From a virus (Duplodnaviria; Heunggongvirae; Uroviricota; Caudoviricetes), in IMG/VR virus record IMGVR_UViG_648276670_000007, positions 1 through 5,691 of that record: a stretch of 5,691 nt of DNA; one strand, written 5' to 3'. Made by a program: the position numbers and the translations under genes. Every line of letters begins with the position of its first letter. Position 1 is the first letter of the stretch. The notes under the pieces were generated by a model, which worked only from the letters and a program-made list of their open reading frames with translations, was not told where the DNA came from and ran no database searches. Below are positions 5,104 to 5,291 of the stretch, one piece after another.

Positions 5104-5143
5104 ATTCTCTTCCTCACTGAGGCTCGTTTTATCTGTGGTACCC

Positions 5144-5175
5144 GCTGTACGGGGCGTGGCCGCGCCCTGTACAGC
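5144..5175. repeat. 32-bp GC-rich near-perfect palindrome (GCTGTACGGGGCGTGGCCGCGCCCTGTACAGC)
   Basis: 28 of 32 positions are self-complementary; the 4 mismatches are two T/G pairs that would be G-U wobbles in a plus-strand RNA. Lies 41-72 nt upstream of the B start codon, between B and the IS end. Confidence 0.6.
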
Positions 5176-5291
5176 ATCAAAACTCTTCGCTGTATCAATC
5201 CCCTGACTTTCCAGCCAGGACGCAAGATGTCACGAACGGTGCAATAGTGATCCACACCCAACGCCTGAAATCAGATCCAGGGGGTAATCTG

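Follow-up and report, generated by a model that had tools for sequence, protein, structure and literature searches.

A reported ATPase gene whose frame stays open upstream as far as an insertion sequence raises the question of whether it is complete or only the surviving part of a longer gene. Here the gene is B, reported by gene callers as a 298-aa open reading frame (ORF) in the window, the whole stretch of 5,691 nt of DNA analysed in this work. Within the window lies the early region of an E. coli prophage that is transposable and BcepMu-like (Bcepmuvirus-type). The source scaffold of the window, GL884256.1 of assembly GCA_000176635.2, was identified through the exact 298-aa product, found on this one public contig, whereas a search of genome contigs for the IS/prophage junction itself gave no match; the host flank of the scaffold matches E. 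coli chromosomes with 100% identity. The early genes lie on the minus strand in the order B, a gene for an 89-aa product and gam, and onward to mor; both gam and mor are inside the window, as expected for a Mu-like early operon. Transposase A, a 589-aa protein with an rve (DDE) domain, is also present in the source scaffold, its stop lying 10 nt before the start of B. The features to which the text refers are the following:

4207..5103, minus strand: B codons 91-388 plus stop, the 298-aa ORF reported by gene callers; AAA+ (AAA_22) with Walker A
5104..5226, minus strand: B codons 50-90, the C-terminal half of predicted helix 4 plus flexible linker; in frame, without a start codon of its own
5107..5115, minus strand: GAGGAAGAG, a Shine-Dalgarno (SD)-like run that encodes Glu87-Glu88-Glu89 of intact B
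5223..5227, TCTTG on the minus strand: one copy of a 5-bp target-site duplication, the second lying beyond IS100 (L005 8514-8518)
5228..5691, plus strand: left end of IS100 (IS21 family), with its terminal inverted repeat (start: TGTCACGAACGG) and istA codons 1-126
5230..5232, minus strand: TGA shutting the B frame on its upstream side, within the IS100 terminal repeat (gTGAca)
minus strand, downstream of B: gam (PF07352, E=1e-40)
minus strand, between B and gam: gene for an 89-aa product
minus strand, at the window start: mor

The end of the prophage by mor lies ~165 nt beyond window position 1 (L005 about 15265), where the source abuts host yahE-yahG. Source, E. coli E-1246 and phage PhiKM are identical until ...CTCAAGTCTAATCA, after which each goes its own way. 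Because the three diverge at the same point past mor, this is a normal prophage end, and we rejected the idea that the prophage had been cut short on the mor side, with host genes following.

The 298-aa ORF matches Pfam AAA_22 (E=3e-20) and AAA_16, contains a Walker A motif (GESGAGKST) at its residues 61-69, and is recognized by the phrog_296 profile with E=2e-73, as compared with 1.3e-92 for the intact 388-aa form described below. Minus-strand translation from 5232 reads '*HLASWLESQGID...SLSEEENMLLKKQ...', with sense codons throughout 5229-5104, so that the frame is indeed open for 42 codons above ATG 5103, as an earlier reading made from the sequence only had reported. That reading had also estimated that an opening of this length arises by chance about once in eight times, which agrees with (61/64)^42 = 0.13 if all codons are equally frequent; the stop-codon frequency of the window itself gives 0.23. 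Chance is nevertheless not the explanation of the open frame, since 5227-5104 is identical to the intact gene of E-1246, with 5226-5104 an exact match to codons 50-90 of intact B. Two bases from the IS and one from the prophage together make up CAT (5229-5227), the first of the 'open' codons. The window copy is thus without codons 1-49, with codon 49 in hybrid form and the frame shut by an IS-borne TGA. The ORF listing also contains a 126-aa TTG-initiated ORF (4881-5261, minus strand) that starts in the IS100 terminal repeat and crosses the junction into B out of frame, and which we read as a mechanical artefact of that listing.

Nucleotides 5228-5691 are 98-99.8% identical to copies of IS100, an element carried by 2837 of the 5426 complete genomes of E. 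coli. Near-identity, TG...CA termini, a 5-bp duplication and istA at the left end all identify it as IS100, whose reference copy (locus L004) is 1954 bp long; istA occupies 5314-5691 on the plus strand, reaching the window end and pointing away from B. The junction was set by aligning two IS100 copies from unrelated contexts together with a prophage copy free of the insertion: IS100 closes with ...CGTTCGTGACA at 5228, and 5227 already belongs to the prophage. BLAST end points had placed the IS end near 5222, a position we rejected after the two-copy alignment revealed the extra bases as chance similarity of the flank. With IS100 ending at 5228, the TGA at 5232-5230 is supplied by its terminal inverted repeat. 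The sequence-only reading had this stop falling exactly at the IS junction; its position was right, but the junction is 5228/5227 and the stop lies 3-5 nt inside IS100. Another, unrelated IS100 copy likewise generated a target duplication of 5 bp (TTTGC), and compared with other simple insertions of IS100 there is nothing unusual here. Insertion at the B site was seen in none of the complete E. coli genomes, the gene being uninterrupted across the site in 624 of 624.

We then compared the remnant with its relatives. The Bcepmuvirus phage PhiKM and 635 complete E. coli genomes contain the stretch 4100-5225 at 95-99.9% identity. Intact B, annotated as 388 aa in E-1246 and in phages PhiKM and KP12, starts 10 nt after the stop of transposase A (a 589-aa DDE protein), behind a strong Shine-Dalgarno sequence (GAGGAGG), and ATG 5103 corresponds to its conserved Met91. 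Alignment with intact homologues, which had been proposed as the check for truncation, showed that they start 90 codons above ATG 5103, in frame, and that their residues 50-90 match 5226-5104; the opposite arrangement, a start at the equivalent of 5103 with non-coding DNA above it, did not occur in E-1246, PhiKM or KP12. Codon differences from KP12 were synonymous versus non-synonymous in a ratio of 9:5 for codons 1-49 and 7:5 for codons 50-90, and this synonymous bias is consistent with codons 1-90 being coding sequence.

The extension is widespread. It is present and alignable in B3 ORF11 (390 aa) and BcepMu gp08 (404 aa). Of the 120 top-ranking cluster representatives in the database, 111 are at least 368 aa long and carry it, and ~110 start with ML(V/R/I/Q)LK. 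In 15 homologues, drawn from Dickeya, Brenneria, Pectobacterium, Serratia, Klebsiella, Salmonella and Providencia, the alignment begins at residue 1, with M1, K5, Q15, A19, S25, Q31, N34, H35, W38 and P39 nearly invariant. Among loci from other genera, covering Enterobacterales, Pasteurellaceae, Burkholderiales and Neisseriales (Gamma- and Betaproteobacteria), ~77 of 80 contain the N-terminal domain. Short B proteins do occur in the database, on contigs of 1-2 kb, and resemble contig-edge calls. One further protein, P0001 (493 aa, 99% identical, on a 5823-base contig), is a full-length B with a tandem duplication of approximately its last 105 residues (LATKLSERNMEV...ADVV repeated), which could be either an assembly artefact or genuine.

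Against its closest intact copy, that of E-1246, the remnant has one mismatch in 1126 nt (99.9% identity): GTC at 5032-5034 (minus strand), encoding Val at the codon for Ala114, a position occupied by Ala or Ser in the other aligned homologues. With so little divergence, the insertion looks recent and without later decay.

The segment missing from the window copy has the features of a DNA-binding domain. Residues 1-64 of the intact protein match PHROG 296, 'DNA transposition protein' (E=9e-16), and, weakly, Pfam HTH_3 and other helix-turn-helix (HTH) families, and for Serratia homologues HTH_3 is among the precomputed Pfam domains. The AlphaFold model of a full-length homologue places helices at 3-10, 15-21, 26-35 and 43-56 (pLDDT 75-84), followed by a low-confidence linker (61-95) and the AAA+ module. 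Matches in whole-protein Foldseek searches were dominated by the AAA+ module and were uninformative on the N-terminal domain, which was modelled separately; alone, it gave four helices with a pLDDT of 82.8, and its fold matches included C.EcoT38IS, 434 repressor, SinR, HipB and P22 c2 (TM 0.6-0.7). According to these profiles and models, the lost segment is a conserved, predicted four-helix XRE/lambda-repressor-like HTH domain of about residues 1-58. The earlier remark that the 298-aa product has no N-terminal DNA-binding domain ahead of its ATPase was therefore well founded, with an HTH fold indicated by Pfam and the AlphaFold models alike. IS100 cut within predicted helix 4, parting helices 1-3 and half of helix 4 from the ATPase, and the complete architecture of HTH, linker and AAA+ in one frame, present in intact relatives, is absent from the window copy.

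We also examined how this protein relates to better known B proteins. BcepMu gp08 and B3 ORF11 are 56-62% identical to the window B, as compared with 98-99.9% for E. coli prophage copies, and share with it the AAA_22 core and a place between transposase A and gam. Members of this family also go by other names, 'Eha protein' in PhiKM and 'ExeA family protein' at NCBI (PHROG 296). Intact relatives of the BcepMu/B3 type have HTH, linker and AAA+, whereas the window copy is split at codons 49-51 and lacks the HTH helices. Mu B, the ATP-dependent target DNA activator B of Muvirus, which is characterized by non-specific DNA binding with ATP, filament formation, stimulation of transposase A and target immunity, likewise sits after a DDE transposase in the early operon. 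It has 312 aa versus 388 aa in intact B. Its N-terminal domain is a four-helix HTH flexibly linked to an AAA+ module (PDB 2MQK, 8XVB; PMC11292022), in agreement with the N-terminal HTH that the sequence-only reading had ascribed to Mu B, and the role of this domain is unsettled (PMC11292022). The same layout is predicted in the intact relatives, and the domain is gone from the window copy.

Direct similarity to Mu B was weak. BLASTP with the Mu B sequence was not significant (E=2.3), and phmmer of the 388-aa protein against PDB returned generic P-loop matches and no Mu B entries, which a Mu B query does find. A profile of the N-terminal domain aligned with Mu B residues 11-61 in hhalign with E=8e-4, at a probability of only 25%, and the 50 best fold hits for the model of this domain did not include 2MQK. 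The AAA+ model matched 8XVB with E=5e-4, RFC and Cdc6 being equally close. By sequence comparison, then, the window B belongs to the BcepMu/B3 'ExeA-type' B family, putatively Mu B-like in role, with Mu B not detectable as a homologue. Its gene position and family annotation suggest that B acts as the helper ATPase of the DDE transposase A.

What lies on the far side of IS100 distinguishes an insertion from a deletion. In the orientation of the early operon, the order on the scaffold is A; B codons 1-50 (...CGT CTT G); the right end of IS100 (TGTCAACGACGG...); a run of N; the left end of IS100 (...GTGACA); and TCTTG followed by the rest of B. Window position 5691 is the edge of the N run within IS100 (L005 8839-9412), and the two ends with their matching duplication point to a single intact IS100 whose interior is the N gap. 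The presence of TCTTG on both sides of IS100 indicates one simple insertion into codons 49-51. The promoter-proximal piece of B reads into the IS and stops after seven foreign codons, forming a 57-aa ORF. The proposal that the IS had truncated B at its N-terminus was hence correct in that the N-terminal codons are cut off from the ATPase, but the gene was split by an insertion, and its 5' piece survives past IS100.

We conclude that the 298-codon ORF is almost certainly the back end of a 388-codon B split by IS100. A true deletion, in which an IS100-mediated rearrangement took away the 5' end of B together with transposase A, would fit the window alone, where nothing beyond the IS is visible; it is highly improbable given that the scaffold has A and B codons 1-50 directly across IS100, with an identical 5-bp duplication. 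The draft assembly shows the IS interior as N, and so two IS100-ended contigs might have been misjoined, the halves of B being apart in the real genome. The flanks, however, continue one gene exactly and show the expected 5-bp duplication, the signature of a simple insertion, leaving very little room for such a scaffolding artefact. Nor is there much to recommend the ORF as a native gene preceded by 42 codons of non-coding DNA open by chance. The chance values of 0.13-0.23 and the SD-like motif before the ATG would allow it, but the upstream codons are identical to codons 50-90 of the 388-aa gene, whose conservation extends from E. coli to Burkholderia, every linker indel keeps the frame and synonymous changes are favoured among the substitutions, making this reading extremely unlikely.

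A different matter is whether the remnant is alive, that is, translated from ATG 5103 via GAGGAAGAG into a working HTH-less B, possibly equal to a natural short isoform. The good Shine-Dalgarno sequence that had been noted for this ATG does exist as a motif, at 5115-5107, but its bases encode the Glu residues of an acidic patch that is conserved ahead of Met91. Internal Met91 is invariant, and a GGAG/GAGG/AAGGA core occurs 5-8 nt upstream in every clade examined, kept even where the residues differ (SEEEN, NQEES, IKDEI, TEEDT). We analysed 50 distinct contexts from four bacterial orders (loci L011-L090, L006 and L007), leaving out of the internal-Met search rows L058 and L065, in which the match was to the true N-terminus (MLVLKQQL resembles MLLKKQVL); these sequences are phylogenetically related, and the counts overstate their independence. 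Mean duplex energy with the anti-SD was -8.0 kcal/mol upstream of the conserved Met, as compared with -1.6 kcal/mol for other in-frame ATGs of the same genes, -9.7 kcal/mol for true starts and -5.2 kcal/mol for a synonymous-recoding null in which amino acids were kept. Relative to this null, 17 of the 50 contexts fell in the lowest fifth and two in the highest. In the E. coli clade, the motif was no stronger than the Glu codons predict (null fraction 0.45-0.74).

Natural B proteins without the HTH exist in Lelliottia wanjuensis (L049 1453-2400), where a 315-aa B begins 10 nt after the A stop and has 19 residues before MLLAKQVL, and in Lonsdalea iberica (L052 1498-2403), with a 301-aa B after a gap of ~195 nt from A. 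The Lelliottia protein, naturally HTH-less and directly after A, implies that a remnant starting at Met91 could keep some activity. A live remnant thus draws on these two species, on an invariant Met91 with an SD-like core somewhat stronger than its recoding null, and on the unclear role of the N-terminal domain in Mu B (PMC11292022). Weighing on the other side are the E. coli clade, whose motif does not exceed its null, the inflation of the counts by relatedness, the likeness of short database proteins to calls at the edges of contigs of 1-2 kb, the absence of any promoter-like site in the IS end or from there to the ATG, and the 1954 bp of IS100 that early transcripts face in antisense. On balance, we consider it doubtful that the remnant is translated into a working protein. 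We assign a similarly slim chance to the more general proposal that Met91 is a genuine internal start and that BcepMu/B3-type phages normally make both full-length B and an HTH-less B of ~298 aa.

Returning to the split of B by IS100, the course of events is as follows, with the gene structure, the junction, the duplication, the conservation and the fold of the lost domain shown by the analysis. Intact B, of 388 aa, comprises an HTH (~1-58), a flexible acidic linker (~60-95) and an ExeA/AAA_22-type AAA+ ATPase. IS100 (1954 bp) entered codons 49-51, duplicating TCTTG and splitting B in helix 4 of the HTH, so that the distal piece (codons 50-388) is shut off upstream by the TGA of the IS terminal repeat. 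With the distal frame closed in this way, gene callers start at the first in-frame ATG, the internal Met91, and report a '298-aa ATPase'. To arrive at the B remnant and the early genes after it, early transcripts would need to run through 1954 bp of IS100 in antisense to istAB. Our search found no promoter-like site in 4900-5691, including the IS end and the stretch between the IS and the ATG. A weak terminator-like hairpin, CCTGCTTGTGCAGG then ATTTTAATTT, lies inside IS100 at 5349-5362 (minus strand), on the strand of the early transcripts; the hairpin count was not above shuffle expectation.

Full-length B would no longer be made, and IS100, being antisense to the early operon, would be polar on B and on the downstream early genes. 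Together, the split of B and the polarity of the IS suggest that the prophage is probably crippled for replicative transposition. The kind of event is ordinary and already known: disruption of a prophage gene by an IS.

For annotation, the 298-aa 'AAA family ATPase' is a pseudogene fragment, not to be read as a natural HTH-less B, and the prophage is to be scored as probably defective for transposition. An open frame that reaches the end of an IS is, in turn, a reliable flag of a split gene. Should Met91 prove to be a genuine internal start, the gene split by IS100 would still encode exactly the short B isoform, and on this lead BcepMu/B3-type phages might dispense with the N-terminal domain or regulate it separately.
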